Position numbers and translations under genes: made by a program. A stretch of DNA of 64,000 bases from a virus, in IMG/VR virus record IMGVR_UViG_3300035188_001379, positions 120,466 through 184,465 of that record. One strand, given 5' to 3'. Below the pieces are notes generated by a model that was not told the origin of the DNA, made no database searches, and was given only the letters and a program-made list of their open reading frames with translations. Positions 5,024-27,216 of the stretch are shown here, piece by piece; the first letter of the stretch is position 1, and each line of letters starts with the position of its first letter.

Positions 5024-5063
5024 CCCCACCCCAATCTGGGGGTGGGCGGATCTTTTTTTAGCT
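5024..5063 (+). terminator. Terminator-like hairpin, GGATC-T7-AGCT
   Basis: CCCACCCC/GGGGTGGG stem; similar copy at 6455-6495. Confidence 0.65.
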
Positions 5064-5567: not shown

Positions 5568-5981
5568 ATGATAAAACCTGCAGCTTTTCATATGAAACCC
5601 ATGAAACAGGAGAGAGTCAGAGTAGTACTTCCTTACCTAGAAGGCTATCTTCTAGAAAGGTTAAGCAACCCAAGATGGCCTATGAACATGGGTAAAACCA
5701 GACATGTAGGCGGAGGAATAGAGAACAATGAAACCCCAGAACAGGCAGCAAGCAGAGAGCTGTTTGAGGAGCTCGGAGTAACTATACCTCCAGCTTCTTT
5801 TGAGAAACTTGGTTCCCACGAGAATCAACACTATTTGATCGTGAAAGATCATGGTCTTGTTCCTGGTGTGTATAAAGCATCTGTAGGCTCAGATGAGTAT
5901 ATACATCTTGTAGCAGGAGATCTCAAGGAAGCTCAGTATATCGGCCCTAGACTAGAAACCCTAACCCAACCCACACAATGA
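5568..5981 (+). CDS. NUDIX hydrolase
   Basis: NUDIX box GGGIENNETPEQAASRELFEELGV. Start could be a downstream Met. Confidence 0.85.
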   Translation: MIKPAAFHMKPMKQERVRVVLPYLEGYLLERLSNPRWPMNMGKTRHVGGGIENNETPEQAASRELFEELGVTIPPASFEKLGSHENQHYLIVKDHGLVPGVYKASVGSDEYIHLVAGDLKEAQYIGPRLETLTQPTQ

Positions 5982-6454: not shown

Positions 6455-6495
6455 CCCCGCCTCGATTCTGAGGTGGGTGGATCTTTTTTTTAGCT
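6455..6495 (+). terminator. Terminator-like hairpin, GGATC-T8-AGCT
   Basis: CCCGCCTC/GAGGTGGG stem; similar to 5024-5063. Confidence 0.65.
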
Positions 6496-7129: not shown

Positions 7130-9238
7130 ATGAACTACAACACACCTATTAGAGACGTTTCAAACCCTGTGATTAACGCAGGGCTTGAAGCTTTATTTGG
7201 CAAGAATCTTATTCCTTCAAGGCTTGAAGGAGAAGACATGATAGACGCTCTTAATAGGCGAGATCGTACACTAGCTTTTAGAGAGAGTGCTGCAAACAAT
7301 TTTGCAGATAATCCAATTGTTAGCCGCCTAGGTGAAAAAGGGTCTAAAGCCTTGGGTAAAATGGACGCACTCTCCGGGGGCAAGCTCAGCGGTTTCTTGA
7401 GTCCTATGCTTGGCGGTAACACATATAAGGCTACAGAAAATGTGCATAACATGCTGCACAATCCTGCAGCTATGAGTGCTTTTGGTGGAGGAAATCACAA
7501 TTCCGAGAATATTATGAAGGCATTACACAAGAACTTCTATAAGCATGCCGAGAATGCTTCTTTAGCGGGTAGCTATATTAATCAGAACATAGGAGAGCTA
7601 CCAACCATCAAAGAACCGGAGAGTATTTCTTTTACACCTGTAGACAATGGTAAGAAAGTAGGGATGGGCTCAGGCTCTAGCACTTTTGCTGGAAAAACAC
7701 CAGTACAACATGCTGAGCACTATCCTAGTCGCAGTGCAGATAAAGCTATCCCAAGAAAGTCTGGTAAAGCCACAATCTCAAAAATACCTATGGGACGTAT
7801 GCCTGCAGCTATGAGTAAAATGGCTCTAGATGATAAGAGTGACACACACACCTATAGAATGGAAGGTAACGTGCAAGGAGTAGGTTTGCGTAAAGCTCTA
7901 CATAAAATACTTGAGGAAAATAGACTCAATGGGCTTGCTGTGAACTATCCAGAAACAAACGAGGTATATGCTACCATACAAGGAAGGAAAAAGAGGATAG
8001 ATCAGATTCTTGATGAGCTTAAGGCCCGTCTGGCGGTGAGAGAAAAAAAGCCTCTGGCTTACGGAACAGACTATAGCATCGAGCACGCTCCAGCCATGAA
8101 GGAAAGGATGCGTAGGGTTGTATTTACTCCAAAAGATATAGAGGTGTTTGAGCAAAACAATCCTGAGCTCGATAAATTCAAAACAGTAGATCTAGAGAAT
8201 AAACTCAAATATTTTGAAGACCGCTATAGGCTACATAGAGACGCTCGAGGGAAGTTGAGAGGCAGTCTGCCCAATAAAGCCATAGACCAGTTGTTTAATG
8301 GTGCTCCTGTGTATCACAGACAGGTATTAGCGCGTAACGAGAATAACGAGAAAGCTGCGTTCTTTACAGGCTTTCTCAAAAGAGCTGCAGAACATGGCTT
8401 TAGCCGCGAGGACACTGTAAAGCTTGCTGCTACATATAAAGAAGCAGTGGCACTTTCAGGAATAGGGAAAGCTTTCGGCACAAAAATGATGCCAAAAATA
8501 TTTAACATGGCTCGCGGAGCTTTTGGCAGTCTTCGTTCACTAGGTTCTAGTGTACCTGAGGGGCCTCTACACACTGAAAGAAATGCAGCGTTAGAAGCGG
8601 GAAACAAGTTTATTGAAAACTTCAAACCTGAAGGTTTTCGTATGTACGCAGGTCGAGTAAAAACACCTGAGAGTCTTGCTGGGCATGGAGGAGGGGTTAC
8701 AAACGACTTGCTAGGTATTAGAATGAGGCCTAGCAAGGGAGGCTATACTCAGGAAAGCGCAGACAACCTTGTAAATCAATTAAGACAGGCAGGGGTAAAT
8801 GTAAGTGGGCAGAAAAAACTTGTAAGACCTGGGTATCACGGCTGGAACATAAAAGGAACATTGCCTCACGCTACTGGGGATGTACCTATCGAAGTGCAGA
8901 TGACTCCGAGAAGAATGCAGGGCATATTTGCAGCGAACCATGCGTATGTATACAAGCCAGAAACATCTGGAGTCTCTCCAGCGGTATCAAAGGGCATCTA
9001 TGACCCAGCATTAAACTATGTGACAAACGTGCTTTCACCGATGAGTAGCCCAGCCAAGAGAATAGGTTATGGTGCTGCCGGGGTAGGTGCGCTAGGTACA
9101 ATGGGCGGTGTTGGCTATAACGCTGTAAAAGGACCAAATAACGCAGCGCAAAACAATGGAGAAGCCTTCAATAGTCAGGCTATATATGATAGAGTTCAGA
9201 CTAGTCCCGCTAGCTATCTAGCTCAGCAAACAAGATAA
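7130..9238 (+). CDS. Multidomain protein: acylphosphatase-like domain, GF-KRA module, RelA/SpoT-like nucleotidyltransferase domain
   Basis: GNVQGVGLR (about 7865); AFFTGFLKRAAEHGFS (about 8357); GRVKTPESL, DLLGIR, GYHG, IEVQMT (8651-8905). Confidence 0.75.
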   Translation: MNYNTPIRDVSNPVINAGLEALFGKNLIPSRLEGEDMIDALNRRDRTLAFRESAANNFADNPIVSRLGEKGSKALGKMDALSGGKLSGFLSPMLGGNTYKATENVHNMLHNPAAMSAFGGGNHNSENIMKALHKNFYKHAENASLAGSYINQNIGELPTIKEPESISFTPVDNGKKVGMGSGSSTFAGKTPVQHAEHYPSRSADKAIPRKSGKATISKIPMGRMPAAMSKMALDDKSDTHTYRMEGNVQGVGLRKALHKILEENRLNGLAVNYPETNEVYATIQGRKKRIDQILDELKARLAVREKKPLAYGTDYSIEHAPAMKERMRRVVFTPKDIEVFEQNNPELDKFKTVDLENKLKYFEDRYRLHRDARGKLRGSLPNKAIDQLFNGAPVYHRQVLARNENNEKAAFFTGFLKRAAEHGFSREDTVKLAATYKEAVALSGIGKAFGTKMMPKIFNMARGAFGSLRSLGSSVPEGPLHTERNAALEAGNKFIENFKPEGFRMYAGRVKTPESLAGHGGGVTNDLLGIRMRPSKGGYTQESADNLVNQLRQAGVNVSGQKKLVRPGYHGWNIKGTLPHATGDVPIEVQMTPRRMQGIFAANHAYVYKPETSGVSPAVSKGIYDPALNYVTNVLSPMSSPAKRIGYGAAGVGALGTMGGVGYNAVKGPNNAAQNNGEAFNSQAIYDRVQTSPASYLAQQTR

Positions 9239-9245
9239 TTTAAGC

Positions 9246-12200
9246 ATGAATAAAATTGGAGATAACGCAGAAGCCTCAGCACAACCGTTTGCAGGTAGAA
9301 CTCAGCCGTTTGCTAATAGTGAGATATCTGCAGAAAGCGCAGCAATAAACACGAATAGGAGCATTCAGCCGGGTACAGGGGCCATAGCTGACTCTGCTCC
9401 TAGTGTTTCTTCTAGAAGTTTAAAAAAAACTCCAGGAGTTAACACTAATATCACAACTCCTCCGCCTAGAATTCCTGAAGCTCAACAAAAAGCCTCTCCT
9501 GCTGGCGCTGTGGGTGCCGCTGGAGGAGTTGTGTCTGCTTTTGGCAGACGAGGAGGTGTAATAGGTGCTGCAACTAATCTTGCTTCTGAAGATGTGCCTG
9601 GCGCTGTATCTAACGTAGCAAGAGCTGTGAGCCCAAAATTGAATGTATTTTCTAGAGCATTAGACGCAGGCAAAAAACTGATTAAAGGCAATCCTGTAGG
9701 TGCAGGACTTGAGATGGCAGGAGCTGTAGTGCCTGTTGTGCCTGATCTAATAAATACAGGAAAAGATTTCATAAATCAGATCGACGAGCAAGCAGAACAG
9801 AATAGGCAATTTAATAAGAGAAACAGAGAGGTGCGTGGAAGTCTAGAGGCGCGTAATACTGGGATAGCTGATGTGGACGGCAATATCTTTGTGAACACCA
9901 ATGACGCTGTGCTTCTAGATAAATTAGGCTTTGAGGTTGCAGATTACGATCTGCTGGAGAAGACGAGCGAGGTGCTAGACCTATACTCGTATATCGAGAA
10001 AGTGGCAGAAGTTCCTAGAGAAGTAGCTAAGCTCATAGACGAAGGCAAAGCGTTCAGTGCTGAGTATCTTAAGGAAATGGAGTATAACGTACCAAAAGGC
10101 TACGAAGTAAAAGGTGACCTATGTTGTCCTTCTGAGAAGACTGAAAAGGAGAAAAAGCGTCTCTCTGAGAAGACTGCTTCAATTCAAAAACAAGCTGTAA
10201 ACTTTGGGCAGATAGCAAAGGCTATAGGTGCAGGTGTAAACAAAATTGCTCCAACTGTGGCAAATGCAGTGCACAGTGCTGCTCCTGCTGCTGCAAAACA
10301 AAAAGCAATTGTTAAGCAATTTCAAGACCCATCTAAAATAGGATTTAAAAGCGTATATCCTACCGAGCCAGTTATGCCTGCAGGCACAAATCCAAAAAAG
10401 TGGAGAGCAGATGTAGCTGAGGGGATGCAGCAACACCAAACTCTAAGCAGAATAAGACAAGACTCTTCTGGACACCAAGCCGCTTTTAGTTTCAATGCTC
10501 CGAATTCGTCGGGGGTAGATGAATTGCATAATGTCTGGGTGCATCCTGAAATGATACATACAAATCAGCAAGGTAAAGGGCTTGCAGCTCATGACAGACA
10601 GCTTGTCAATGCACTCATTGAGAACACTCAAACGGGGCAGAAATGGGCACAGCCAATGTACAGGTCTACCGGCACGAATAGTGAGCATACAGTAGGACAG
10701 TGGCTACCAACCAGAGGATTTGGTGCACCTAGTGAAGACTGGGTTAACGCAGTAAAAACAAAAATAAATCCAGAATTTGAAATGCCTCAACCGGTACCTG
10801 GAGTTTTACCGCAATTTGTAGGACCCAGCAATCAAGGGCCAGGAGGATTAAAAGGGCCAGGTTGGCTTGGTAAATATCAATTTAATCCTAGCACACAACA
10901 GTGGATGGTGCATGACAAAACAGACGCAGGAGTTAACGCTCTTATGCCTGTATATCAAAGATTGCGTGAAGCAATGGGAGAGTATATGGGAAATATTGGG
11001 CTAGCTAAGCAAGGATCTGAGAAGTCTGCTTCTGAAAGTAAGCCTGGGCTATGGGCAAATATTCATGCAAAGAGAAAGCGTGGAGAGAAAGCTGCTAAAC
11101 CTGGAGATGAGGATTACCCAGATAAGAAGCAATGGGATAAATTGAGTAAAAAAGGAGAAGCCGATCCAGAACAGTCTATATTGATCTCAGGTCACAGTGG
11201 TGCAGGAAAGAGTACGCTCGCGAAAGAACTATCTAAATTACTAGATATGAATCTACGTAGGGTAGATGCACACAAAGGATTTAGTGACTATGTTAAAAAA
11301 GACCACGAACACTGGGAAAAGTCATTGTCTGCTGGAACAAAAGAGTACGAGAGGTTTAATAAAATTATAAATAACGCTAATAGACACGTGCTGAGAAATG
11401 CTCCAGAGGCTTCAATTATCGAAGGCACTCAACTAGGTCATCTTTCTCCAGAAGAACTCAGCAAGTTCAAGGCACACATTCTGGTAGGAGGTACTCCAGA
11501 ACAGTCTATAATGCAAAGAATAGCTAGAAGCGCAAAAAAGAAAGGTGTCGAGTTCTCTCCAGAAGAAATTGAAGCTAGGAGAATAAAGGCAAAGAAAGTG
11601 GTAGACTTCTGGGAGCCTGGTATTGAAAAGTTCAGAAAGCTGCCAGGGACGCTGCAATATAATCACACAGAGCATGAGGTGGAGCCTTTGGTAGAACAAC
11701 TGCGTGCACTAATGAGCAAGCAGGCAGCATCTGCAGCATGGCAGCGCAGTGAAGGCAAGAATCCTGAAGGTGGATTAAACGCTAAGGGCAGGGCTAGCTA
11801 TAAGAAGCAAACAGGAGGCACCCTCAAAGCTCCAGTAACAGAGAGTAACCCGTCTGGTGAAAGGGCTAAGCGTCAGAATAGCTTCTGTAGTCGCATGTGT
11901 GGAATGAAGAGTAAGAACACGGGCAGCAAGGCTCAGAGCGATCCAGATAGCCGCATCAACAAATCGTTACGTAAGTGGAACTGTAAGTGTGGCGAAGATC
12001 ACAGTTCATTGTTCGAGAAAATAGCCTGTAACTTTAAAGAAGCTAAGAGTAGGTGCTGGGAAGGCTATGAGCCTGTTCCTGGTAAAGATCCTTATAGTGA
12101 AGACAGTTGCAGACCTAAGGGCAAAAAGAAAAAGATAGAAAAGAATGCCTCTACCGCTTGGAAAAAGAGACTTCGCACAGGTAAGCTGAGCGTCGATGGA

Positions 12201-13172
12201 GTTAACGCGATACTGCGAAGTAGTGGGCTGAGTTCAACTATGTCGCCTGAAAGTTGGCACAAGAGTCTTTCCGATCCTAGGTATTCTAAGGGAATACTGT
12301 ATGGGCATAGAGAGAGAGGAAAATCGGAAAATGTATTTAATCGTAAATATACCGTGCAACCTTTTAGTGAACAAGAACATTTGGATCGTCTTGCGCGAAC
12401 CAACTTAGGCTCTCTAGCTAGGGAGGCGGCATGGAGGCATCCGGATAGTATATATCCCTACTATAAAGCTCATATGATGGATACTCGTGCAGGACAGGAT
12501 GCTCAAGCAGTAAAAGAAACAATTAATGAACTATCGTATGATTCTAAGCAAAAGCGTTATATGCGAATTCTTCAAAAAATGTACGATAAAAGAGAGAAAA
12601 TGCCCACTAGCCGTAAAAAATTTTTAAGCGATTCTTCTGACTACCCTAGAGAAAACTGGCGCGGCATGTCTCTACAGCAAGCAAACGACTTGCTCGACAG
12701 TGCTGGGCAAACTGGGAATCATGGTCCGCAGGCAGTTCCAGACTTAAATACGATTGCTGGTCCTGTGGGTGTAGGGCAGCCAATCACCAGGCATGAGATT
12801 TCTCATCTAGTGGATCGTAATATGCCACAAGCTCAACGGCTAGCTGTTTTGAAAGAACTGCACCAAACACTTAAAAGAAATCCTGAAGTTATGCGAGGTA
12901 TACTTAGATATAAAGATCCGACCAAGGCTATATCTGAGTCTTTTGCGCAATTGATAGGTAGCAGAGGCAATTCAAATTCAGCGAAAAGGTTTATTGACTC
13001 ATATGTTGACGCTGCAAAAAATTCAAAAATATGGGATATGCAGCAAATACTTCCTAAATTACTTGAACGTGATCCTTCTGGGCGAGACGCTGCCGTTGTT
13101 TCTCAGTTGATAAGAAGATACGGCCTTAGGTTACCTGATTACGCGCGACACCAAGGCGCTCTACCTCTATGA
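9246..13172 (+). CDS. 1308-aa modular protein: micro-domains, P-loop NMP-kinase-like domain, DUF6321-like domain, C-terminal HExxH zincin-like domain
   Basis: GLWANIHAKRKRG; ISGHSGAGKST; AWQRSEGKNPEGGLNAKGR...SFCSRM...INKSLRKWNC; RCWEGYEPVPGK; RHEISH...SESFA. Confidence 0.75.
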   Translation: MNKIGDNAEASAQPFAGRTQPFANSEISAESAAINTNRSIQPGTGAIADSAPSVSSRSLKKTPGVNTNITTPPPRIPEAQQKASPAGAVGAAGGVVSAFGRRGGVIGAATNLASEDVPGAVSNVARAVSPKLNVFSRALDAGKKLIKGNPVGAGLEMAGAVVPVVPDLINTGKDFINQIDEQAEQNRQFNKRNREVRGSLEARNTGIADVDGNIFVNTNDAVLLDKLGFEVADYDLLEKTSEVLDLYSYIEKVAEVPREVAKLIDEGKAFSAEYLKEMEYNVPKGYEVKGDLCCPSEKTEKEKKRLSEKTASIQKQAVNFGQIAKAIGAGVNKIAPTVANAVHSAAPAAAKQKAIVKQFQDPSKIGFKSVYPTEPVMPAGTNPKKWRADVAEGMQQHQTLSRIRQDSSGHQAAFSFNAPNSSGVDELHNVWVHPEMIHTNQQGKGLAAHDRQLVNALIENTQTGQKWAQPMYRSTGTNSEHTVGQWLPTRGFGAPSEDWVNAVKTKINPEFEMPQPVPGVLPQFVGPSNQGPGGLKGPGWLGKYQFNPSTQQWMVHDKTDAGVNALMPVYQRLREAMGEYMGNIGLAKQGSEKSASESKPGLWANIHAKRKRGEKAAKPGDEDYPDKKQWDKLSKKGEADPEQSILISGHSGAGKSTLAKELSKLLDMNLRRVDAHKGFSDYVKKDHEHWEKSLSAGTKEYERFNKIINNANRHVLRNAPEASIIEGTQLGHLSPEELSKFKAHILVGGTPEQSIMQRIARSAKKKGVEFSPEEIEARRIKAKKVVDFWEPGIEKFRKLPGTLQYNHTEHEVEPLVEQLRALMSKQAASAAWQRSEGKNPEGGLNAKGRASYKKQTGGTLKAPVTESNPSGERAKRQNSFCSRMCGMKSKNTGSKAQSDPDSRINKSLRKWNCKCGEDHSSLFEKIACNFKEAKSRCWEGYEPVPGKDPYSEDSCRPKGKKKKIEKNASTAWKKRLRTGKLSVDGVNAILRSSGLSSTMSPESWHKSLSDPRYSKGILYGHRERGKSENVFNRKYTVQPFSEQEHLDRLARTNLGSLAREAAWRHPDSIYPYYKAHMMDTRAGQDAQAVKETINELSYDSKQKRYMRILQKMYDKREKMPTSRKKFLSDSSDYPRENWRGMSLQQANDLLDSAGQTGNHGPQAVPDLNTIAGPVGVGQPITRHEISHLVDRNMPQAQRLAVLKELHQTLKRNPEVMRGILRYKDPTKAISESFAQLIGSRGNSNSAKRFIDSYVDAAKNSKIWDMQQILPKLLERDPSGRDAAVVSQLIRRYGLRLPDYARHQGALPL

Positions 13173-13528
13173 ATCAAGGAGATCTAAGCGGACTGAAACA
13201 GTATGGGATAGATGTAGGCCTTTTAATCAGCGGGCTGTTTGGGGCTATCCTTTTAACTAGCAAGGGAAGCGCTATGAATCTTACTCGTACTGTGAGCAGC
13301 CTTGTAGGAGGAGCAGCTAGTGCAAACTATATTACACCTATCGTTGTTAATATGGCCAAGCTAGACGATACACACTACCATTATGGTATAGCATTTCTAT
13401 TGGGTTTTCTTGGATTAAAAGGTATAGAATATTTTAGCAGCAAGCTAATTCCTGAAGTTGCTCACGAACCAGAGCCTGTGCGCGCTAGACCAAGAAAAAG
13501 AAAACCCGCAACAAGAAGAAGAAAATGA
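13169..13528 (+). CDS. Holin-like membrane protein
   Basis: Three hydrophobic segments and a strongly basic C-terminal tail. Confidence 0.55.
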   Translation: MNQGDLSGLKQYGIDVGLLISGLFGAILLTSKGSAMNLTRTVSSLVGGAASANYITPIVVNMAKLDDTHYHYGIAFLLGFLGLKGIEYFSSKLIPEVAHEPEPVRARPRKRKPATRRRK

Positions 13529-13896
13529 CTACACCAGCAGTAATCAATGCAGTTGCAAATTGCACTACCGCTTTCTCAGCTCTAGCGCTACTTATTCATA
13601 TTTTTGGAGACCCTGACAACAGTGTATGGGACAACAATATCAAAGCATGGTTAGCCAAGTCAGGCTTATCCGTAGTTGTCTGTGGAGCTATAGCGAATGT
13701 GCTCACCCTAAGCTCTCCAGCAACATCAGAGATAGTACTCAACTGCGGCATGAGTCTTACATTTTTCTGGCTTAGTTGGTGGCAGTGGGAGATGTTTAAA
13801 GAGATGCAGCGAGAGAGCGAGCGTAAAAGAATTGCTAGAAATAAAAGAAATACAGTTAAAAAACAAACAAAGCGTAAACCAGCAAAAACAGTATGA
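13525..13896 (+). CDS. Membrane protein (second holin-like gene)
   Basis: Three hydrophobic segments, basic tail, ATGA-coupled to both neighbours. Confidence 0.55.
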   Translation: MTTPAVINAVANCTTAFSALALLIHIFGDPDNSVWDNNIKAWLAKSGLSVVVCGAIANVLTLSSPATSEIVLNCGMSLTFFWLSWWQWEMFKEMQRESERKRIARNKRNTVKKQTKRKPAKTV

Positions 13897-14927
13897 ATCT
13901 AGAAGATTTTAAAAACGGATGTAACAAGCAAAAAGAAGACTCTAGAGACAGAGTCTATAAGCCAAAGATCGTTCATTGGACGCATCTCAATGATATAGAT
14001 CTTCGGAAAGATTGCAGCGCACCTAGAGCTCAAGGAAACATTGGTTCGTGTACTGCTTTTGCTGCCACAAGCATGTTTGATTTTGTGAGAAGGAAAAACA
14101 GCATGGTGAGCTGGCAGCCTAGTCCTCTTTTCACATACTACGCCACACGAAAAGCAGTAGATCCTGTACTAACAGATTCTGGAGCAACTGTACGAGACGC
14201 TCTTAAAAGTGCCGCAAGAGATGGAGTAAGTATGGAGCGGGTATGGCCATATATCGTTGAGAAGTATAACGAGCATCCGCCAGAAGAGGCGTGGAATATT
14301 GCAGAAAAGCATCAGGCTCTCGAGTATCTAAAGCTCAATGACTTTGATAAGAGCGAATGGCTTAACTGTCTCCATGAGGGATATCCTTTTATATTTGGAT
14401 TAAACCTATATGCGTCTTTCTTTGATCCTTTCATGCAGCTTCTTGGAGGATTCATGCTAGATCCTGATAGAGAAAATGAAAAGCTTGTGGGCGCACACTG
14501 CATGATGGCTGTTGGTTATATTAAGAACTACAATAATAAAGAGTATCTCATAGTTCAGAACAGCTGGGGCACTGGTTGGGGAGACGGTGGTTATTGCTAT
14601 ATTCCACTAAGCTATATCATGACTAACGATAGCTTTGATTTCTGGACAATTAGACTTACAGAAACTAGCGACGAGTACGCTAGCGATCCTATCGAAGAGC
14701 CTAAGCCAGAACCAAAGCCTGAGCCAGTTCCTGAGCCTGCGGTAGAACCTCCTGCTCCTGAACCTGAACCTATAGTAGAACCTCCCTCTCCTGTTGTAGA
14801 GCCTGTTGTAGAGCCTGTCGCACCGGCCCCGGCGGTAGAAGTAGTGGAAGCTAAGCGCAAAAACCTACCATTCTATATAGTAATGGCTATAGGTGTGCTA
14901 CTCTTACTTGTTTTTATTTTTGGATAA
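13893..14927 (+). CDS. Papain-family (C1A) cysteine peptidase with Pro/Glu linker and C-terminal membrane anchor
   Basis: QGNIGSCTAFA (Cys), GAHCMMAVGY (His), QNSWG (Asn); PEP-rich linker; FYIVMAIGVLLLLVFIFG tail. Confidence 0.9.
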   Translation: MNLEDFKNGCNKQKEDSRDRVYKPKIVHWTHLNDIDLRKDCSAPRAQGNIGSCTAFAATSMFDFVRRKNSMVSWQPSPLFTYYATRKAVDPVLTDSGATVRDALKSAARDGVSMERVWPYIVEKYNEHPPEEAWNIAEKHQALEYLKLNDFDKSEWLNCLHEGYPFIFGLNLYASFFDPFMQLLGGFMLDPDRENEKLVGAHCMMAVGYIKNYNNKEYLIVQNSWGTGWGDGGYCYIPLSYIMTNDSFDFWTIRLTETSDEYASDPIEEPKPEPKPEPVPEPAVEPPAPEPEPIVEPPSPVVEPVVEPVAPAPAVEVVEAKRKNLPFYIVMAIGVLLLLVFIFG

Positions 14928-14931
14928 ATCT

Positions 14932-15930
14932 ATGCTAAAGCTTGCTAAATATATTGAAAAAACTGGGATGAATCTCAGTTACATGAAGAATGCGCTTAGA
15001 GCTGCTCGCGCTGCGGGTGTACCTATTCTTCGAAGTGAGGATGCACTAAAGTCTCATATAGCCCAAAACGTGACACCCTCTTTTTTAAAGAAAATCCCTT
15101 TCATTGGAGAACGGATGCACGACGCTACAACTAACCTTGGAACTAATGCGTTAACCTTGAAAGGGCCTGTAGCTGTGCCTGGCCATAATTTTGTATACAT
15201 GCCAAGAAGTTTTACAAACGGAGCAGGACAAAATTATTCTCCTAGAGCGACATTGTTACATGAGTTAGGCCATATACAACACATGCAAGAAGATCCAAAG
15301 TCTTTTGGAACAATGGGTCAGTTAAATCGTGTTTTTAGTTCACCCGTAAATGCTAGAAGTAGAATGAATCTAACTGAAACTATAGCGAACAACAACGCAA
15401 TTATGGATATGCGTGCAGCTAATGTTCCTGAGCATTTAATAGATACATATAAAACTAGGGTGCAGTCTCCTTTTCATAATAGTTATGGGCTAAACCTAGA
15501 AAATATTGGAAATAGCCCTACTGGGAATATGAATTTACCTAGAAGAATTTTGCACGGTGCAACACAAAGACTTTCAGATATGGGAAAAAATATTGCAGGA
15601 ATTGGAAAAAGTTTTTGGCAAAGCTTTAAAAAACCCAAGCAACTAGATGCAAATTTTTCTGGAACGGTACCAAATACCCAGGCAAGCCTGCCTGGACCTT
15701 TAAGACCGTACAAACCATCAGCCGACTTCATGAGCAAATTTAACGCCTCTTTAGGCAAAGCTAACAATGCGGCAATTTCTCCTGTCATGGAGCGCCCTGC
15801 GCATATCCCTGCGCGACAAGCCGAAGTTCGAAGATTTTCAAGTAAAGCAACAGGTTTTGCTCCACTAAAAAAGATCCCAGTTTACACACATCCGGCTGCA
15901 CAAGAATTTAACGTACCTTATTCAGTATAA
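14932..15930 (+). CDS. HExxH zincin-like protein with YIEKTG leader
   Basis: LLHELGH followed by ETIAN. ATG at 14932 preferred over the track start, which overlaps the peptidase. Confidence 0.6.
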   Translation: MLKLAKYIEKTGMNLSYMKNALRAARAAGVPILRSEDALKSHIAQNVTPSFLKKIPFIGERMHDATTNLGTNALTLKGPVAVPGHNFVYMPRSFTNGAGQNYSPRATLLHELGHIQHMQEDPKSFGTMGQLNRVFSSPVNARSRMNLTETIANNNAIMDMRAANVPEHLIDTYKTRVQSPFHNSYGLNLENIGNSPTGNMNLPRRILHGATQRLSDMGKNIAGIGKSFWQSFKKPKQLDANFSGTVPNTQASLPGPLRPYKPSADFMSKFNASLGKANNAAISPVMERPAHIPARQAEVRRFSSKATGFAPLKKIPVYTHPAAQEFNVPYSV

Positions 15931-15975
15931 AATAAATCTTTATCTGGAGCAAAGCAATTGCTAGAATTACAAAAT

Positions 15976-17103
15976 ATGAGCGCAGATCAAATACACATGC
16001 TAGGCTTTATTAAAAGAGCTTCTCAATACGGTTATTCAGAAAGAGAAATTGAATACCTTTTGAAGCAGGCTTACGGACTTCCTTCAAATTTCGTACCGAA
16101 TACTCCAGGTAGCTTAGCCGCCCCTATAGCTACTTCTGTTACAGGAGGAAAAGTTCCAGAGTCGCTAAAACCTGAGTATCAAAGCAACTCTCAAGCAGGA
16201 ATGATGAGCGGTTCAAATTTTTATTCTTCTCCTCAACCGGCACAGTCGGCAGCTGCAGCTCCTGCAGCAAATCCAACACCAGCGCCTGCTCCAGTTCAAG
16301 CAGGTCCTAGCGATGCGCAGCTAGCAAAAATTATGGGCAGCTACAATCCCAAGTCGAAGCTAGACCAAACAAAAGCTACAAGAATTCGAGAGTTATATGG
16401 GCAGGGTACAACTTCACCCAGCGCCATATATGCCGATAAAGCTTATAGTGGAATAACGCCTAAATCTATTAGAGCAGGAGGAGCACCGCAACCTATTTCA
16501 ATACCAACAAAAACAGCCAGCATGAATACACAACAACACTCATACATCTACGGATTCGTAAAAAGAGCCATGCAATATGGTTTTAGCGAGCAGCAAGCAT
16601 TGAACATTTTCAAGAACGCTGCTGAACTTAAGGGCGACCAGCATAAGCTCGACGTCGATAAAGACGGTAAGATCGAGGCTTCTGACCTTAGGAAGTTGAG
16701 ACAGCGCAAGCAGGCTGCGTTCATGAAGCAGTCTGACCTTGGTGATGCGATGATGGCCGGCGCTAATTATATTCAAGATAAGGTAGTAAATCCTGTTTCT
16801 ACGTTTGCGCAAGAGAAGATTGTGGCCCCTGTAAAGCAGTATATGAGCAGACCAGACCCTTTTGACCCAGCTAACAGAGCTCAGTTTGATAAAGGAGCCA
16901 AAGGAAGTTATATTAGAGAAAGAGCTCTAGCTGATAAGGCTAATAGTGCAGCTGCAGGAGACGTTGGTACTTTCGCAGGAGGAACTGGTACTTTAACTGG
17001 AGGTACAGTAAATGCAGGTACAGTAAATGCAGCTCCAGTCGCTAGACCTGCGGTACGCGCTCCTGGTGTAACTGCCGTTAAACCTGTTGTAGCTAGACCA
17101 TAA
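15976..17103 (+). CDS. Modular low-complexity protein with two GF-KRA modules and an EF-hand-like motif
   Basis: HMLGFIKRASQYGYS; SYIYGFVKRAMQYGFS; LDVDKDGKIEASDL. Confidence 0.7.
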   Translation: MSADQIHMLGFIKRASQYGYSEREIEYLLKQAYGLPSNFVPNTPGSLAAPIATSVTGGKVPESLKPEYQSNSQAGMMSGSNFYSSPQPAQSAAAAPAANPTPAPAPVQAGPSDAQLAKIMGSYNPKSKLDQTKATRIRELYGQGTTSPSAIYADKAYSGITPKSIRAGGAPQPISIPTKTASMNTQQHSYIYGFVKRAMQYGFSEQQALNIFKNAAELKGDQHKLDVDKDGKIEASDLRKLRQRKQAAFMKQSDLGDAMMAGANYIQDKVVNPVSTFAQEKIVAPVKQYMSRPDPFDPANRAQFDKGAKGSYIRERALADKANSAAAGDVGTFAGGTGTLTGGTVNAGTVNAAPVARPAVRAPGVTAVKPVVARP

Positions 17104-17108
17104 ATAAT

Positions 17109-17366
17109 ATGACCCCCGAAGAAGCATATATCGAAGGATTCGTGAAAAGAGCAACACAGTATGGACTTAGTGAAGCTGAGGCATTTGAGCTGTTAAAAAG
17201 CGCTGTCGACCAAGATGCAGTAGCACAACCTGGTATGAGATCCGCTACGGCTAAACCTGGTCCTGAGCGTTACGTACCTCCAGCTCCTCCTACTGGTGTG
17301 CCAGCAGTCTCGCTTGACTCTTTAGATAGTCGTAAAAAGGGTCCCGTAGCGCAAAGAAGAAGATAA
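17109..17366 (+). CDS. Small GF-KRA module protein
   Basis: MTPEEAYIEGFVKRATQYGLSEAEAFELLKSA. Confidence 0.7.
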   Translation: MTPEEAYIEGFVKRATQYGLSEAEAFELLKSAVDQDAVAQPGMRSATAKPGPERYVPPAPPTGVPAVSLDSLDSRKKGPVAQRRR

Positions 17367-17370
17367 GCGT

Positions 17371-18642
17371 ATGAACAGACGCGAATTCCTTTACACTGGT
17401 TTGTTCGGTGGGTTAGGAATTGGTATGGGAGATCTGTTCAGACTAAGAGCTGAGTCATCTCTAACTGCGAAGGCCGCGTCTGTTATTCATATTTTCCTGC
17501 CTGGAGGAGCAGCAGCGCAGGAAACATGGGATCCTAAAGTAAATGCTCCTTCAGAGTATCGTGGGCCGCTAAAGAGTATTCCTACAGCTATTCCTGGGAT
17601 ACACTTTAGCGAGCACATGAAGAATACAGCTAGAGTAGCTGATAAGATCACTCTTGTGCGCTCTATGACTCATGGCGAAGCTGCTCATGAGCGGGGTACC
17701 ACCAGCATGTTTACAGGCTATAAGCCTAGCCCTGCTGTAAACTATCCTTCGTTTGGTAGCGTTGTGTCTCATGAGCTTGGAGGCGCTAATAATTTACCTG
17801 CATATGTATGCATCCCCCAAAAAATCAATAATAATGGTAACGATGTCGCTGGCAGTGGTTTTCTCTCTAACTCGTATGGTCCTTTCAGTCTTGGATCAGA
17901 CCCGGCGAGTAAAGGGTTCAAGGTAAGAGACCTTGACTCTAATGTGAGCGCTGATCGCTTTGAGCGTAGAAAGAGTATACTTGAAACAGTGGACGGTCAT
18001 TTCAAGTATATGGAGAGCACTGACGCGTTGGTGTCGATGGATACGTTCTACCAGCAAGCATATGCTCTGCTTAGCTCTGAGAAAGCTAGAGCAGCATTTG
18101 ATCTGACAAAAGAAACAGCAAAGACCAGAGAAGAGTACGGACTCTCTGAAGCAGGCCAAAGATTTCTTATGGCTCGTAGGCTTGTAGAGAGTGGTGTGAA
18201 GTTTGTGAGTGTCACATATGGAGGGTGGGACATGCACAACAATATAGGTGTACAGATAGATAAGCAGCTTCCAGCTTTTGATAAGGCTTACGCGGCCCTG
18301 ATTAATGATCTTGATCAAAGAGGAATGCTAGAGAATACACTGGTGATGGTAAGCAGCGAGTTTGGACGCACACCTAAGATAAATATGAACGCTGGGCGCG
18401 ATCATTGGCCTAGAGTGTTCAGCGTTGCATTTGCTGGAGGAGGATTCAAGAGAGGGCTTGTGTACGGAACAAGCAGTGTCACAGGCGATGATGTTGACAG
18501 TAACCCTCTGTCTGTAGAAAACCTTGCAGCTACCTTGTATCATCAGCTAGGTATCAACCCAGAAGGCTCTCTTATGGCTGATGGTGGACGCCCTGTAAAG
18601 ATTGTGTATAATGGTACTGTGATGCAAGAACTATTAGCATAA
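17371..18642 (+). CDS. DUF1501 family protein with Tat signal
   Basis: MNRREFL Tat motif; SVIHIFLPGG, QETWDPK, SMTHGEAAHERG, GGWDMH, SEFGRTP, GRDHWP. Confidence 0.88.
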   Translation: MNRREFLYTGLFGGLGIGMGDLFRLRAESSLTAKAASVIHIFLPGGAAAQETWDPKVNAPSEYRGPLKSIPTAIPGIHFSEHMKNTARVADKITLVRSMTHGEAAHERGTTSMFTGYKPSPAVNYPSFGSVVSHELGGANNLPAYVCIPQKINNNGNDVAGSGFLSNSYGPFSLGSDPASKGFKVRDLDSNVSADRFERRKSILETVDGHFKYMESTDALVSMDTFYQQAYALLSSEKARAAFDLTKETAKTREEYGLSEAGQRFLMARRLVESGVKFVSVTYGGWDMHNNIGVQIDKQLPAFDKAYAALINDLDQRGMLENTLVMVSSEFGRTPKINMNAGRDHWPRVFSVAFAGGGFKRGLVYGTSSVTGDDVDSNPLSVENLAATLYHQLGINPEGSLMADGGRPVKIVYNGTVMQELLA

Positions 18643-18644
18643 TT

Positions 18645-20006
18645 ATGAGCGACTGTGGTAATCATCCTTCTTTCTCTAGCCGAAGAGAATTTCTAAATGA
18701 TTTTGCATGGGGTATGGGCGGCTTATCGCTTGCCTCTATTCTAAATTTTAGTACTCATACGCTAGAGGCTAGCGGAGCACTAGGAGCAAAGAAACCGCAC
18801 TTTCAACCAAAAGCAAAAGCAGTAATTCAATTGTTTGCTAGTGGTGCTCCTAGTCATGTAGACACTTTCGACTATAAGCCAGAGCTGCAGAAAAGAGATG
18901 GAGAGAAGCACGATTATGGAAATCTGCTAGCTTCTCCTTTTGAGTTTAAAAGATTTGGTAAGTCTGGTATACACTATTCTGAAGTGTGGAGCAAGCTTGC
19001 CGGTCATGCTGACGACATCGCAATAATCAACAGCATGCAGACTCCAATACCTGACCACGGTATTGCTAGCAAGTTCCTACACACAGGAAGCTCTCAGTTG
19101 AGTAAGCCTAGTCTTGGTAGTTGGCTTGTATATGGGCTAGGTACATTGAATGAGAATATGCCAGGGTTTATCTCGTTAAACTCTTCTCCTGAGTCTAGGC
19201 AGTGTGCATTTCTTCCTGGGATGTATCAGGGTTGTAATGTGTCCTATCGCCAAGGCATGAATCCTAACGAGATTCTTGCAAATCTACGTAGCGAGTTCAG
19301 CACAATAGAAAGACAAAGAAGGCAGATCGATCTAGCTAGAAGTCTGAGTTTGGATCATATGAGCAAGCTGCAGAAAGACACACAGCTCGAGGCCAGACTA
19401 GAGTCTTTTGAAACTGCGTTTAAGATGCAGACCGAAGCCACTGACGCTTTTGATACGAGCAAAGAGAGTGAAGCTGTTAAAGACTTGTATGGCAGAACAG
19501 AAGAAGGCGCAAGAATGCTTGTGGCTCGTAGACTTGTAGAAAAAGGAGTACGGATGGTTCAGGTAAATGTAGGAGGCTATGATCACCACTCTGATATTAA
19601 AAATGCTATGAGTAATACGGCTCGTAGATATGATCAGGCATTTTCTGCGTTGCTTACAGATTTGAAGCAAAGAGGATTACATAAAGACGTACTTGTTGTT
19701 TGGGGTGGAGAGTTTGGTAGAACTGTAACTAGTGGAGGAGGTGCAGGTGCTCCTGGCAGAGATCACAACGGTAAAGCTTTTAGCGTCTGGATGAGTGGCG
19801 GTGGAGTGCAAGGAGGACAAAGATATGGTGAGACTGATGAGATAGGAGCTAAAGCTGTAAAAGACGTCACAGGCATTCATGATCTGCACGCTACAATTTT
19901 ACATCTGATGGGGTTTGACCACACAAAGCTTATCTACGAGTATAACGGAAGACCGTTCAGGCTTACTGATGTATACGGTGATGTGATTAAAGAAATCACA
20001 GGCTAG
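18645..20006 (+). CDS. DUF1501 family protein with Tat signal (second subfamily)
   Basis: SRREFL; AKAVIQLFASGAPSHVDTFDYKP, PSLGSWLVYGLG, YDHH, GEFGRT, GRDHN, HDLHATILHLMG. Confidence 0.88.
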   Translation: MSDCGNHPSFSSRREFLNDFAWGMGGLSLASILNFSTHTLEASGALGAKKPHFQPKAKAVIQLFASGAPSHVDTFDYKPELQKRDGEKHDYGNLLASPFEFKRFGKSGIHYSEVWSKLAGHADDIAIINSMQTPIPDHGIASKFLHTGSSQLSKPSLGSWLVYGLGTLNENMPGFISLNSSPESRQCAFLPGMYQGCNVSYRQGMNPNEILANLRSEFSTIERQRRQIDLARSLSLDHMSKLQKDTQLEARLESFETAFKMQTEATDAFDTSKESEAVKDLYGRTEEGARMLVARRLVEKGVRMVQVNVGGYDHHSDIKNAMSNTARRYDQAFSALLTDLKQRGLHKDVLVVWGGEFGRTVTSGGGAGAPGRDHNGKAFSVWMSGGGVQGGQRYGETDEIGAKAVKDVTGIHDLHATILHLMGFDHTKLIYEYNGRPFRLTDVYGDVIKEITG

Positions 20007-22323: not shown

Positions 22324-22731
22324 ATGAATACCCAGCAACAAGCGTATATCTACGGATTCGTAAAAAGAGCAGCCGAGCACGGTGTTAGCGAAGATAAAGC
22401 TCTTGACCTCTTGAAAGAAAAAATGGGGCCTTTCGACGCTGAGCGTGCTGCCGACATGCTTGCAGCAGAGGTAAAGCTTAAAGCGTTAACTCACAATAAA
22501 AAAGAACACCCGTACCACTACTATTTAAATCCTTTTGTAGGAGGTCCTCTTACAGAAGTAATGACTAAGTTAGATAGACGTGGTTATGCAGGAATAGCAG
22601 ACGACGAAGTACTCGCACATCATTTAATTGGAGGGCCTTTGTTAAATATGTACAGGGGAGGAAAAGAAACAAGAAACAAGGTTAGAGAAAAGTTCAATAA
22701 AGCTGTGGAAGACTATTCTGGAGAAAAATAA
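22324..22731 (+). CDS. GF-KRA module protein
   Basis: MNTQQQAYIYGFVKRAAEHGVS. Confidence 0.7.
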   Translation: MNTQQQAYIYGFVKRAAEHGVSEDKALDLLKEKMGPFDAERAADMLAAEVKLKALTHNKKEHPYHYYLNPFVGGPLTEVMTKLDRRGYAGIADDEVLAHHLIGGPLLNMYRGGKETRNKVREKFNKAVEDYSGEK

Positions 22732-22754: not shown

Positions 22755-23492
22755 ATGAGCAAAGCTATACAATATCTTGAAAAACTGGCAGCAAAAAAAG
22801 AAAAAGAAAAAGAGCGGGGTATAGGGTTAAGTGGGGTAATAGGAGCTCCATTACTCGCTGCTGGTGTTTTGGGGCTGGCCGGCAGTGTTCCTGCCACTAA
22901 GATGCTTTTACGCGGAGCTCGGGTGCCAGAGAAAAAAACCTTACTGTCTAAGCTAATGCCTAAGAGTTACGATGCGCGGGATTTTGTTGCGGACTATATT
23001 GCTACAAGTCGCGGTGTAGGTCATACACCATATGCAAAGCCTTTAAAAGCGTACGCAAAGACACAAGCAAAGCCTTCTATCACATATCCAACAGCTGAAT
23101 TGGCTGTGAAAGAGATGGAAGACCACTACGATAGCTTCTTGTCTAAAGATCCAAGAAATGCGGTACGTAAATGGATTGATGAAGTGGTTGCACATAAAAA
23201 AGAAAATTTTATTAAAAATAACCCCGATTTTAAAGGAAACAGAATTACTCAAGATTTCGAAGCACGAGGACAAAAATTAAAAGATTATATAGCGCAACCT
23301 CACGAAGACACACTAAAACTTATAAGAGAAATAGAAGATCCTGAGCTTTTAAAAATGCTGATCAATATGCAGTCACAAAAGGCAAAGGTTTCTGGTTTTT
23401 ATGGTAAACTCGGTCTTGGTGGTTTAGGTTTGGCTGGAGTTGGGGCAGGGCTTGTAGGAAAAGAAATTTATGACCAGTCACAAAAAGAATAG
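22755..23492 (+). CDS. Protein with YLEKLA leader and two Gly-rich hydrophobic segments
   Basis: MSKAIQYLEKLAAK; GLSGVIGAPLLAAGVLG; GLGGLGLAGVGAGLVG. Confidence 0.65.
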   Translation: MSKAIQYLEKLAAKKEKEKERGIGLSGVIGAPLLAAGVLGLAGSVPATKMLLRGARVPEKKTLLSKLMPKSYDARDFVADYIATSRGVGHTPYAKPLKAYAKTQAKPSITYPTAELAVKEMEDHYDSFLSKDPRNAVRKWIDEVVAHKKENFIKNNPDFKGNRITQDFEARGQKLKDYIAQPHEDTLKLIREIEDPELLKMLINMQSQKAKVSGFYGKLGLGGLGLAGVGAGLVGKEIYDQSQKE

Positions 23493-25453: not shown

Positions 25454-25834
25454 ATGGTGATGAAAAAGAAGAGGATACCTCAGTTCGACCCAGCTACAGC
25501 CTTATTCGACAACGACTTAATCCTGATTGATCAGGAAAACGTTACCAAGAAGGCATCGTTCAAGCTATTCAAAGATTCTGTTGGCGGTAACGGCGGAGGA
25601 GGATCACGTAACACCACAACATATTATTTTGTCGGAGACGGTATCAAAAAAACGTTTAACCCTGTGTCTTCGCTAGTCAGCACAGATGCTACAAAATGTT
25701 TGGTTGTAGTTGGTGGTGTTCCGCAACTAGCTAATATATCGTATGATCTAACTATGGACGCTGGAGGAACCCTGCGATTCATCGACGAAGCCCCTCCTGA
25801 AGGGCTTTCCATCTCTATACAAAGTTTTCAATAG
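25454..25834 (+). CDS. Small virion structural-type protein
   Basis: RIPQFDPAT...LIDQENVTKK anchor-like start; FVGDG...VVVGGVPQ...LRFIDEAPPEG, a beta module typical of myovirus fibre/baseplate proteins. Confidence 0.55.
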   Translation: MVMKKKRIPQFDPATALFDNDLILIDQENVTKKASFKLFKDSVGGNGGGGSRNTTTYYFVGDGIKKTFNPVSSLVSTDATKCLVVVGGVPQLANISYDLTMDAGGTLRFIDEAPPEGLSISIQSFQ

Positions 25835-25899
25835 TTCTTTATTTTAGATAAATAATCGGGTATGATAATGACTGTACCGAATTAACCTTTTAAAAATAT

Positions 25900-27216
25900 A
25901 TGCCATTAACAAAAGTAAGATACGACATGTTAGATCCGGAGATCACGCAAAAGATCTCTGACGCTGGGAGTCCTTTGGTCTTTACTCAAGACCCTAACAA
26001 TGCGAGCGCAAAAGCATTAACCAAGTTCAAAATTGACGGAGGTGAAAAGAACATTCGTAGTACAGCGTTCGCTGAAGGCAAGCTTGTGATTACTCTCGCA
26101 AGTTTTACACCTACAGTTACCCCTACAGGGCAGACTAATCTTGCTTGGGATAAGGCAGCTACTGAATTTACTGTAGTGGTTGATAATCCTTCTACCGATT
26201 ATCCTGATCAATGGCTTACTGAAGTTACCGCCATTGAGCAGACCGCTGGAGCTGTGTCTGTAGATTTGGATGACTACACACCCACTACACAACAAACCTT
26301 ACCTTTGACGGCTTCTGGCGATTTTACAGTAAAATATACTGCTGACAAAACCGTCAGCTATATCCGTCCTGTTCATGCTAGTGTTAACGGTACAGCTAAC
26401 GGCGGATCTGCAGGAGCTAATGTAGTGCTTAAGAGCAAGACAGGAACTGCCGATGCTGTTAACTGGACTACAAAGTATCCGTGGAGCACTACCTGGCAAA
26501 ACGTAAGTCACAGTATTTCACTCGCTAACCTGACAGGTAAAACATTCCTTAAGACCTACGATAAGGTTACCTTTACTGTGGCAAGTTCGGGACTTGACAC
26601 GCGCGGTAACGCAAACCACACATTCACAGTTACTGGAGGTACGGCAACCGAACCAGGAACTTCTGGCTCGTTGACAGGTGACTTCGAGTTCGATAAAGAA
26701 ATCAACCACAGCAACGGCGCTACTGTCAGAACTATCAGGTTAACAACTGAGTTTACAAGACCTGCTGAAGTTACAGGTACAGAGTATAAATTTACTCCTG
26801 GTGACGAGACTACGACAGCGATATCTGCCGCTTTTTCGTATCCTTCGTTTACTCTGATGAGCGCTTCTACTCCAACAGCAAATACAATCATCAGTGACGG
26901 CTCAACGACAGGGTTTAGTGGGGCTGTAGCTCTTCTCGGAGACCAGCAAAAAGCTTACACTACATCAGTAACTAATCCTGATGCGACAAACGCAACCAAG
27001 TTTTGGTTTGGTGTTAGAACAGCCGCAGGGGTACCCACTTCCATCAAAGGTGGAACATCTCTCATATCTGACGTGTCTTATGAAACAGCCACTATTACTT
27101 TAACGCCATCGAACACAAGCGATGCTGACAAATGGCAGAACTATAGCGGAGAAGGCTATACACTTATAGGGATTACAATACCTGGAGGAGCTAGCACAAA
27201 CATCATTATTTCTTAA
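25900..27216 (+). CDS. Thr-rich beta-strand structural or adhesion-like protein
   Basis: 438 aa, T/S/G/V-rich, within a fibre-like gene block. Confidence 0.55.
   Translation: MPLTKVRYDMLDPEITQKISDAGSPLVFTQDPNNASAKALTKFKIDGGEKNIRSTAFAEGKLVITLASFTPTVTPTGQTNLAWDKAATEFTVVVDNPSTDYPDQWLTEVTAIEQTAGAVSVDLDDYTPTTQQTLPLTASGDFTVKYTADKTVSYIRPVHASVNGTANGGSAGANVVLKSKTGTADAVNWTTKYPWSTTWQNVSHSISLANLTGKTFLKTYDKVTFTVASSGLDTRGNANHTFTVTGGTATEPGTSGSLTGDFEFDKEINHSNGATVRTIRLTTEFTRPAEVTGTEYKFTPGDETTTAISAAFSYPSFTLMSASTPTANTIISDGSTTGFSGAVALLGDQQKAYTTSVTNPDATNATKFWFGVRTAAGVPTSIKGGTSLISDVSYETATITLTPSNTSDADKWQNYSGEGYTLIGITIPGGASTNIIIS

Follow-up and report, generated by a model that had tools for sequence, protein, structure and literature searches.

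The window analysed here is a 64,000-nucleotide stretch, bases 120466–184465, of a 184,465-bp virus record in IMG/VR (IMGVR_UViG_3300035188_001379; completeness estimate 94%); positions below are those of the window unless genome coordinates are named. On its plus strand, an open reading frame (ORF) at 7130..9238 encodes a 702-residue protein, which the ORF listing and the shuffled architectures of its close homologues indicate to be modular and of the polyvalent type. From the N-terminus, the protein comprises a module shared with another ORF of the same genome (residues 8–138; 7151..7543), an acylphosphatase-like domain (residues 242–299; 7853..8026), a portable two-helix tag (residues 408–439; 8351..8446), a module resembling the pyrophosphokinases in the family of RelA/SpoT homologues (RSH), in particular the small alarmone synthetases (SAS) (residues 440–612; 8447..8965), and a hydrophobic, Gly-zipper-like tail (residues 642–668; 9053..9133), all on the plus strand. 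An earlier note on this DNA had claimed a RelA/SpoT-like domain embedded in a modular phage protein, and the occurrence of acylphosphatase-like and SAS-like modules within this single ORF bears out the embedding.

Four motifs had been claimed in the canonical RSH order, and all lie where they were placed, in one frame of the ORF on the plus strand: GRVKTPESL (residues 508–516, nt 8651–8677), DLLGIR (residues 526–531, nt 8705–8722), GYHG (residues 568–571, nt 8831–8842) and IEVQMT (residues 587–592, nt 8888–8905). The sequence YKEA, after which the domain was said to start, is also present (residues 436–439, nt 8435–8446), but it lies about 40 residues ahead of the start that had been given; from its position the module begins at V440, with the catalytic core occupying residues 477–612 (nt 8558–8965). 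The hydrophobic Gly-rich tail was recovered by a composition scan and has counterparts in the tails of homologues.

The relationship of this module to RSH enzymes was examined with sequence profiles and with structure comparisons. On the domain's own sequence the Pfam RelA_SpoT model fails, a result that on its face would refute the assignment; the family profile and the predicted structure described below overturn that verdict. Likewise, Pfam PF04607 found nothing in the whole genome, while 11 control genomes gave matches, and a PHROGs search of the 702-residue protein returned no match. Single-sequence phmmer against the PDB produced only a weak similarity of the Gly-rich tail to ATP synthase subunit c (E 0.0066), and a profile of six close homologues (A1) gave chance nanobody matches only.

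A family alignment of 22 sequences (A2), with identities to the query down to 19%, was used as a profile for hmmsearch against the PDB. Twelve RSH/SAS entries came first (E 5.6e-6 to 4e-3), among them 3l9d (5.6e-6), FaRel2 (6.8e-5), 2be3, YjbM/RelQ, Rel, RelP and YwaC, and the next matches had E > 0.4. Furthermore, five of the 22 relatives match Pfam RelA_SpoT on their own (E ≤ 1), the best with E 2.2e-5. The AlphaFold model obtained with A2 reached a predicted local distance difference test (pLDDT) score of 78.5 and a predicted template modelling (pTM) score of 0.70, against a pLDDT of only 50.7 for the single-sequence model. With Foldseek, its best PDB matches were SAS2, 2be3, SAS1 and RelP (E 7e-4 to 2e-3). 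VIA-align, which is independent of Foldseek, gave nine best chains that are all RSH enzymes, including SAS2 (6fgk; Z 10.7, root mean square deviation (rmsd) 2.5 over 123 residues), RelP (Z 10.2), SAS1 (Z 10.1), Rel and an exported SAS (both Z 9.1) and, with lower scores, CapRel (Z 7.5), Tas1 (Z 7.3) and SpoT (Z 7.1); other nucleotidyltransferases reached Z ≤ 7.0. A structure search of the Atlas gave a TM score of 0.73 to a RelA_SpoT cluster. Since the profile matches in the PDB, the Pfam matches of relatives and the agreement of the model with SAS structures (Z 10.1–10.7) all point the same way, the RSH identity is more than chance. Judged from sequence profile and modelled fold, residues 477–612 are thus confirmed as a real but very divergent RSH domain of the synthetase, SAS-like type.

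Three positions are invariant in A2 (the RxK Arg, the DxxG Asp and the G-loop Tyr), and the K, S, G, E, Q and H..YK positions are at least 90% conserved. The key residues of the 702-residue protein are R509, K511, S515, H519, D526, G529, R531, Y569, E588, Q590 and H604. Alignment with hidden Markov models (HMMs) maps this set onto R64, K66, S70, D90, G93, R95, Y128, E145 and Q147 of FaRel2, and the corresponding residues of RelP are R78, K80, S84, D107, R112, Y151, E174 and H190; R509, K511 and S515 also align with the GRVKPIESI motif of 3l9d. From the roles described for FaRel2 (PMC11782079) and RelP (PMC5794853), R509, K511 and S515 would serve the adenine, ribose and phosphates of ATP and D526 with E588 the Mg ion. 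By the same mapping, G529, R531 and Q590 would contribute to adenine binding, Y569 would stack on the acceptor, and H604, the equivalent of RelP H190, would contact ribose. The G-loop Tyr is flanked by basic residues (K561, K562, R566 and H570, in KK..R-P-G-Y-H) where FaRel2 has N-D-D-G, and according to the FaRel2 study (PMC11782079) a large positive patch is retained at the acceptor site in alarmone synthetases. For the SAS core, comparison with the homologue on contig L003 (82% identical) gave a ratio of nonsynonymous to synonymous substitution rates (dN/dS) of 0.10, and for the acylphosphatase part one of 0.03; by this measure the domain is shown to be under purifying selection.

The family to which the module belongs is rare, with 37 clusters at E ≤ 1e-3 among 1.84 billion representatives in a profile search. 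A word-indexed search recovered eight close proteins, all of which end in the synthetase-like domain and a Gly-rich tail and differ in their front parts. Ten clusters that were looked up contain metagenome proteins named at most "hypothetical protein", and neither the whole 702-residue protein nor two distant members had a tblastn match among 50,697 phage records. Members also occur on six further IMG/VR contigs of 27–203 kb, one of which (L008, 203,206 bp) encodes a protein 55% identical in the synthetase-like domain. They are either stand-alone proteins of 190–250 residues or parts of larger proteins, where the partner modules are a 2H "Swiss Army Knife" phosphoesterase, two P-loop kinases with a GNAT domain, DUF6321, or an acylphosphatase. 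The acylphosphatase module, recognised by Pfam or by its GxxQGVGxR loop, is found in P0001, P0002, P0004, P0010, P0013, P0024, P0025 and L007, either before or after the synthetase module. Two proteins, P0018 (2135 residues) and P0038 (1713 residues), are likely spurious members, the profile matching 11 short stretches of the one and 6 of the other; unrelated matches to Pfam repeat families probably stem from them, and both were left out of the conclusions. Pfam also recognises a PTH2 peptidyl-tRNA hydrolase domain in one member of the family (E 4e-16) and an effector-associated domain, EAD9, in another (E 1e-28). A related 86-kb contig with a family member also encodes a tubulin-family protein (L001 1–194; Pfam Tubulin). 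Some very large phages encode tubulin-family proteins.

The segment directly ahead of the synthetase module is shared with other proteins of this virus. In a blastp search of the genome's own ORFs, residues 404–448 aligned with several small ORFs at their N-termini and with two others internally. With six copies as input, an HMM detected nine copies in the genome's ORFs (independent E-values 2.6e-22 to 1.1e-5) and none in a shuffled proteome. The tag spans about 30 residues and has a core resembling a-Y-I-x-G-F-V-K-R-A, and in most copies its end is hydrophobic-hydrophobic-K-x-A; in the 702-residue protein this end is Y436-K-E-A439, with the synthetase module starting directly after. Within the window, tagged ORFs lie at 7130–9238, 15958–17103 (two copies), 17109–17366 and 22324–22731. 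In the head region they lie at genome coordinates 11088–11468, 15585–16721 (two copies) and 25829–26092, and an ORF adjoining one of them (genome 14077–15525) matches a head-maturation protease (phrog_18299, E 1.8e-9).

In most family members, a K-x-[AGS] motif occurs at the same aligned place, 53–70 residues before RxK. In stand-alone members it closes a short leader of 9–13 residues, for example MWFKTYLIKSA or MDYCAYLIKQA, and the acylphosphatase module of P0025 has an almost identical one, MWYESYLIKHA, ahead of it. Likewise, three neighbouring genes of a 156-kb viral contig (L011; 6962–7516, 7836–8627 and 8895–9812), one of them the stand-alone synthetase-like gene, share the leader F-[DE]-x-G-V-x-x-G-[IL]-x-K-x-A-A, and on L012 the gene of a stand-alone relative and that of the large terminase (phrog_675, E 7e-68) are 0.8 kb apart. 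Enrichment in K-x-[AGS] was seen in four ORFs only, including the head protease and two ORFs near it. A search of the genome with Pfam Peptidase_S77 was uninformative, as control genomes were likewise blank. By analogy with the capsid-targeting sequence of T4, we infer that the tag may be a prohead address and that the protease may cut after K-x-A. The earlier note took the domain for a host-shutoff effector that stays inactive until release or injection; such a role is putative. Release of the synthetase module by cutting and its delivery in the capsid are plausible, because a K-x-A tag precedes the domain and recurs beside the head protease, and because a K-x-A leader takes its place in stand-alone relatives.

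The remaining modules of the 702-residue protein were also analysed. Residues 8–138 are 31% identical over 137 residues (blastp E 1e-16) to the start of a 1445-residue ORF at genome 30064–34401, and this shared module might serve in anchoring or packaging. Among the ORFs of the head region, PHROG scans put names to the protease and a sigma factor only, leaving the 1445-residue ORF without one. The acylphosphatase-like domain, with its GxVQGVGxR phosphate loop, matches Pfam PF00708 with E 1.6e-7 and 32 bits (cut-off 22.5) and also matches the NCBIfam acylphosphatase models. The structures retrieved from the Atlas for this part are all acylphosphatases, and the fold probably extends to about residue 366. 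The Gly-zipper-like tail is kept within the close clade, and similar segments occur in the neighbouring cargo-like ORFs 9246–13172 (residues 86–108) and 22755–23492 (residues 210–236) as well as in mid-protein in the homologues P0005–P0008; it may insert into a membrane or an ejection conduit.

Upstream of the 702-residue gene, across a gap of 19 nt, lies a 148-residue DUF3008 ORF, and 8 nt downstream begins a 1308-residue polyvalent ORF with a P-loop kinase-like domain and DUF6321. A strong terminator-like hairpin (6456–6477, plus strand) stands just 5' of this co-oriented run of three genes. A second strong hairpin of this kind is found at 5025–5046 (plus strand), and both have GC-rich stems of 8–9 pairs followed by the identical tail GGATCTTTT. 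Downstream of the polyvalent genes is a papain-family (Peptidase_C1) gene (13893–14927, plus strand), the position of which is kept in three related contigs (the window, L002 at 7152–8156 and L003 at 12453–13472), and its product could be a second processing protease for polyproteins. Further along, two full-length DUF1501 genes lie in tandem on the plus strand (17371–18642 and 18645–20006; Pfam E 2.6e-112 and 1.8e-127), an unusual phage cargo.

The absence of an antitoxin or hydrolase gene beside the domain, as stated in the earlier note, held for antitoxins: the ORF listing of the locus contains no adjacent small antitoxin or small alarmone hydrolase (SAH) gene. The hydrolase part needs qualification, as a gene for a 137-residue NUDIX hydrolase (5568–5981, plus strand; Pfam NUDIX E 6.9e-11, with matches to PHROG nudix families) lies 1.1 kb upstream, though not adjacent, and a role of its product in hydrolysing the synthetase product is possible. 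No SpoT-type HD hydrolase (HD_4) was found in the genome. Across the loci compared, IMG/VR loci L009–L012 among them, no small neighbour gene is conserved; an 87-residue ORF after the L011 gene was considered as a partner and rejected, having no homologue in any other locus. Antisense open stretches of 92–139 residues overlie the domain in all eight homologues, which may be an effect of composition.

Taken together, we favour, at a little better than even probability, a reading in which the module is a divergent RSH pyrophosphokinase of SAS type with apparently intact catalytic residues, forms part of a capsid-loaded and ejected polyvalent cargo, and uses a purine nucleotide as acceptor. On this scheme, the 702-residue protein would be made late and drawn into the prohead via its tag or its N-terminal module. 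The head protease would then cut at K-x-A junctions, freeing the synthetase module from residue 440 onward with its Gly-zipper tail, and the pieces would be ejected into the next host along with the DNA. There, the enzyme would move the beta-gamma pyrophosphate of host ATP onto the 3'-OH of a purine nucleotide, and the resulting alarmone of the (p)ppGpp or (p)ppApp type would reprogramme or arrest host metabolism. A purine acceptor is preferred because of the basic flank of the G-loop Tyr, the positive patch described in the FaRel2 study, and closest structures that are RelP and RelQ rather than CapRel and Tas1. This choice is the weakest step of the scheme, and tRNA or another acceptor may be used instead.

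Several observations weigh against this proposal. The cut-out domain has zero matches in Pfam and NCBIfam even at E ≤ 10, and the whole protein, searched against Pfam, NCBIfam and PHROGs, is recognised as an acylphosphatase only. In RelP, a basic helix after strand 1 holds the triphosphate through K88/R91 (PMC5794853), as does its FaRel2 equivalent through K74/R77 (PMC11782079); here that helix is missing, and S515 and D526 are separated by a 10-residue Gly-rich loop, L-A-G-H-G-G-G-V-T-N. Its sole remnant is H519, a Lys in distant members, the second basic residue being without counterpart, so that ATP binding may differ. Moreover, R531 is replaced by Gln in most of the distant members. The gap in Z between SAS enzymes and CapRel or Tas1 does not determine the substrate, and neither sequence nor modelled fold would decide between G, A and tRNA. 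With regard to delivery, the gene lies about 100 kb from the head module, and searches of the 702-residue protein with Pfam and PHROGs found no MuF, portal or other known virion-anchoring domain. Nor is the ORF enriched in K-x-[AGS] overall, and we therefore rely on the position of the motif and not on its count.

Transfer of pyrophosphate to a tRNA's 3'-CCA end, as by FaRel2, PhRel2 and CapRel, would stop host translation without making an alarmone, and we regard this as unlikely. FaRel2 is the second-best sequence match in the PDB (E 6.8e-5), CapRel aligns at Z 7.5, the Tyr that stacks on the acceptor is invariant, and the PTH2 peptidyl-tRNA hydrolase domain of one family member would suit a tRNA substrate. 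However, the N-terminal helices with K28/R29 by which FaRel2 anchors tRNA (PMC11782079) have no evident counterpart, the module retains basic residues beside the G-loop Tyr, like enzymes that use nucleotides, and a total block of translation at entry would harm the phage too. More radically, the fold could be catalytically dead or repurposed as a binding or structural module. The truncated phosphate-binding helix, the failure of the Pfam model on the domain's own sequence and the exchange of R531 for Gln would be in keeping with such a loss, yet the catalytic Asp and Glu, RxK, the Tyr and the His are kept down to 19% identity under a dN/dS of 0.10, and a dead domain would not be expected to retain exactly these residues; we hold this explanation to be very improbable. 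Conserved catalytic residues and the low dN/dS instead give the module the look, at the sequence level, of a working enzyme with an altered grip on the triphosphate.

An active enzyme might also stay unpackaged and serve metabolic takeover or superinfection exclusion in the infected producing cell, with the tag as a docking or folding module. The gene does lie far from the head genes and amid metabolic-looking modules (NUDIX, kinases, DUF1501), Pfam found no virion-anchoring domain, and the Gly-zipper tail could simply anchor the enzyme in the host membrane. Against this, ORFs in the surroundings of the head-maturation protease carry the same tag, a stand-alone relative neighbours the large terminase gene, the short leaders ending in K-x-A resemble capsid-targeting peptides of the T4 type, and a fully active SAS of the toxin type would endanger the cell producing it if no immunity gene were present. 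We therefore give an unpackaged enzyme a low probability. Finally, the synthetase-like and acylphosphatase-like modules, which travel together in at least eight family clusters and in either order, could form a capsid-delivered functional pair that makes or edits a non-canonical pyrophosphorylated nucleotide, or that disables nucleotides of host defence signalling by pyrophosphorylation. This is a long shot in our estimation; if true, it would represent a new counter-defence chemistry and not a classical mimic of the stringent response.

Returning to the favoured reading of an ejected, alarmone-producing cargo, synthesis of an alarmone on entry, if true, would directly exemplify the injection of a stringent-response switch by a phage. 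The module offers a test case of about 170 residues for the product of a minimal RSH core without the usual phosphate-binding helix. Furthermore, it allows one to ask whether enzyme cargo in phage heads is loaded and set free through a two-helix tag with a K-x-A end, and why an acylphosphatase-like domain so often accompanies the synthetase.

Internal proteins IPI–III and Alt of phage T4 carry a capsid-targeting sequence that is removed by the prohead protease at the cut motif (L/I)-x-E. Alt is among the proteins cited in the polyvalent-protein study of Iyer et al. discussed below (PMC5512222). The likeness, by analogy, lies in a short leader or tag that is common to unrelated cargo and has a conserved, cut-like end motif; Alt-type cargo is an enzyme injected with the DNA, and a similar delivery may be supposed for the 702-residue protein. 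Unlike in T4, the tag is a two-helix element of 30 residues that also occurs inside polyproteins, and its end is K-x-A and not (L/I)-x-E.

Among cellular enzymes, the module is most like RelP/SAS2 and RelQ/SAS1 (6fgk, 6ewz and 5dec), with Z 10.1–10.7 and rmsd 2.5–2.9 over about 123 residues, and in both RxKxxxS, DxxG, the G-loop Tyr, ExQ and H..YK follow one another in this order. It differs in being a phage and not a cellular protein, in its 15–20% identity, in lacking the C-terminal helices for tetramer formation, and in having a short Gly-rich loop in place of the K88/R91 helix of RelP. With the toxic SAS enzymes FaRel2 (8pu4), CapRel (7ztb), Tas1/Apk1 (6ox6) and MuF-fused Apk2 it shares the catalytic core that is used there as a weapon, Apk2-type enzymes being joined to a minor capsid protein domain in temperate phages. 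In contrast to these, the module has no adjacent antitoxin or immunity gene, no pseudo-zinc-finger and no MuF, and its structural scores with them are below those with housekeeping SAS. For an Apk2-type assignment, a MuF/SPP1 gp7 domain was sought in Pfam and PHROGs and an immunity gene next to the ORF, and neither was found; likewise, the bicistronic small antitoxin or SAH of toxic SAS toxin–antitoxin pairs is absent from the locus.

The closest published precedent is the description of RelA/SpoT among the phage-type polyvalent domains, which were proposed to be delivered together with the DNA and to manipulate the host through alarmone-like nucleotides (Iyer, Burroughs, Anand, de Souza and Aravind, 2017; PMC5512222). 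The examples given there are recognisable domains in prophages of Spirochaetes and epsilon-Proteobacteria and MuF fusions. As in those polyvalent proteins, an RSH domain is strung here with unrelated effectors and extensively shuffled between relatives. Unlike those examples, the domain has a sequence below the detection of the Pfam model, a shortened phosphate-binding helix and a frequent acylphosphatase-like companion (the word acylphosphatase has 0 occurrences in PMC5512222), and it follows a tag ending in K-x-A, with no zincin protease in the same protein. RelA/SpoT modules in phage polyvalent proteins (2017) and MuF–Apk2 toxins are thus known already. What is new with respect to this literature is a distinct, unannotated RSH branch below Pfam detection, with a shortened phosphate-binding element, a recurrent pairing with acylphosphatase and a portable K-x-A tag ahead of it; because the branch goes unrecognised by the standard family model, counts of such enzymes in large uncultured phages are too low.

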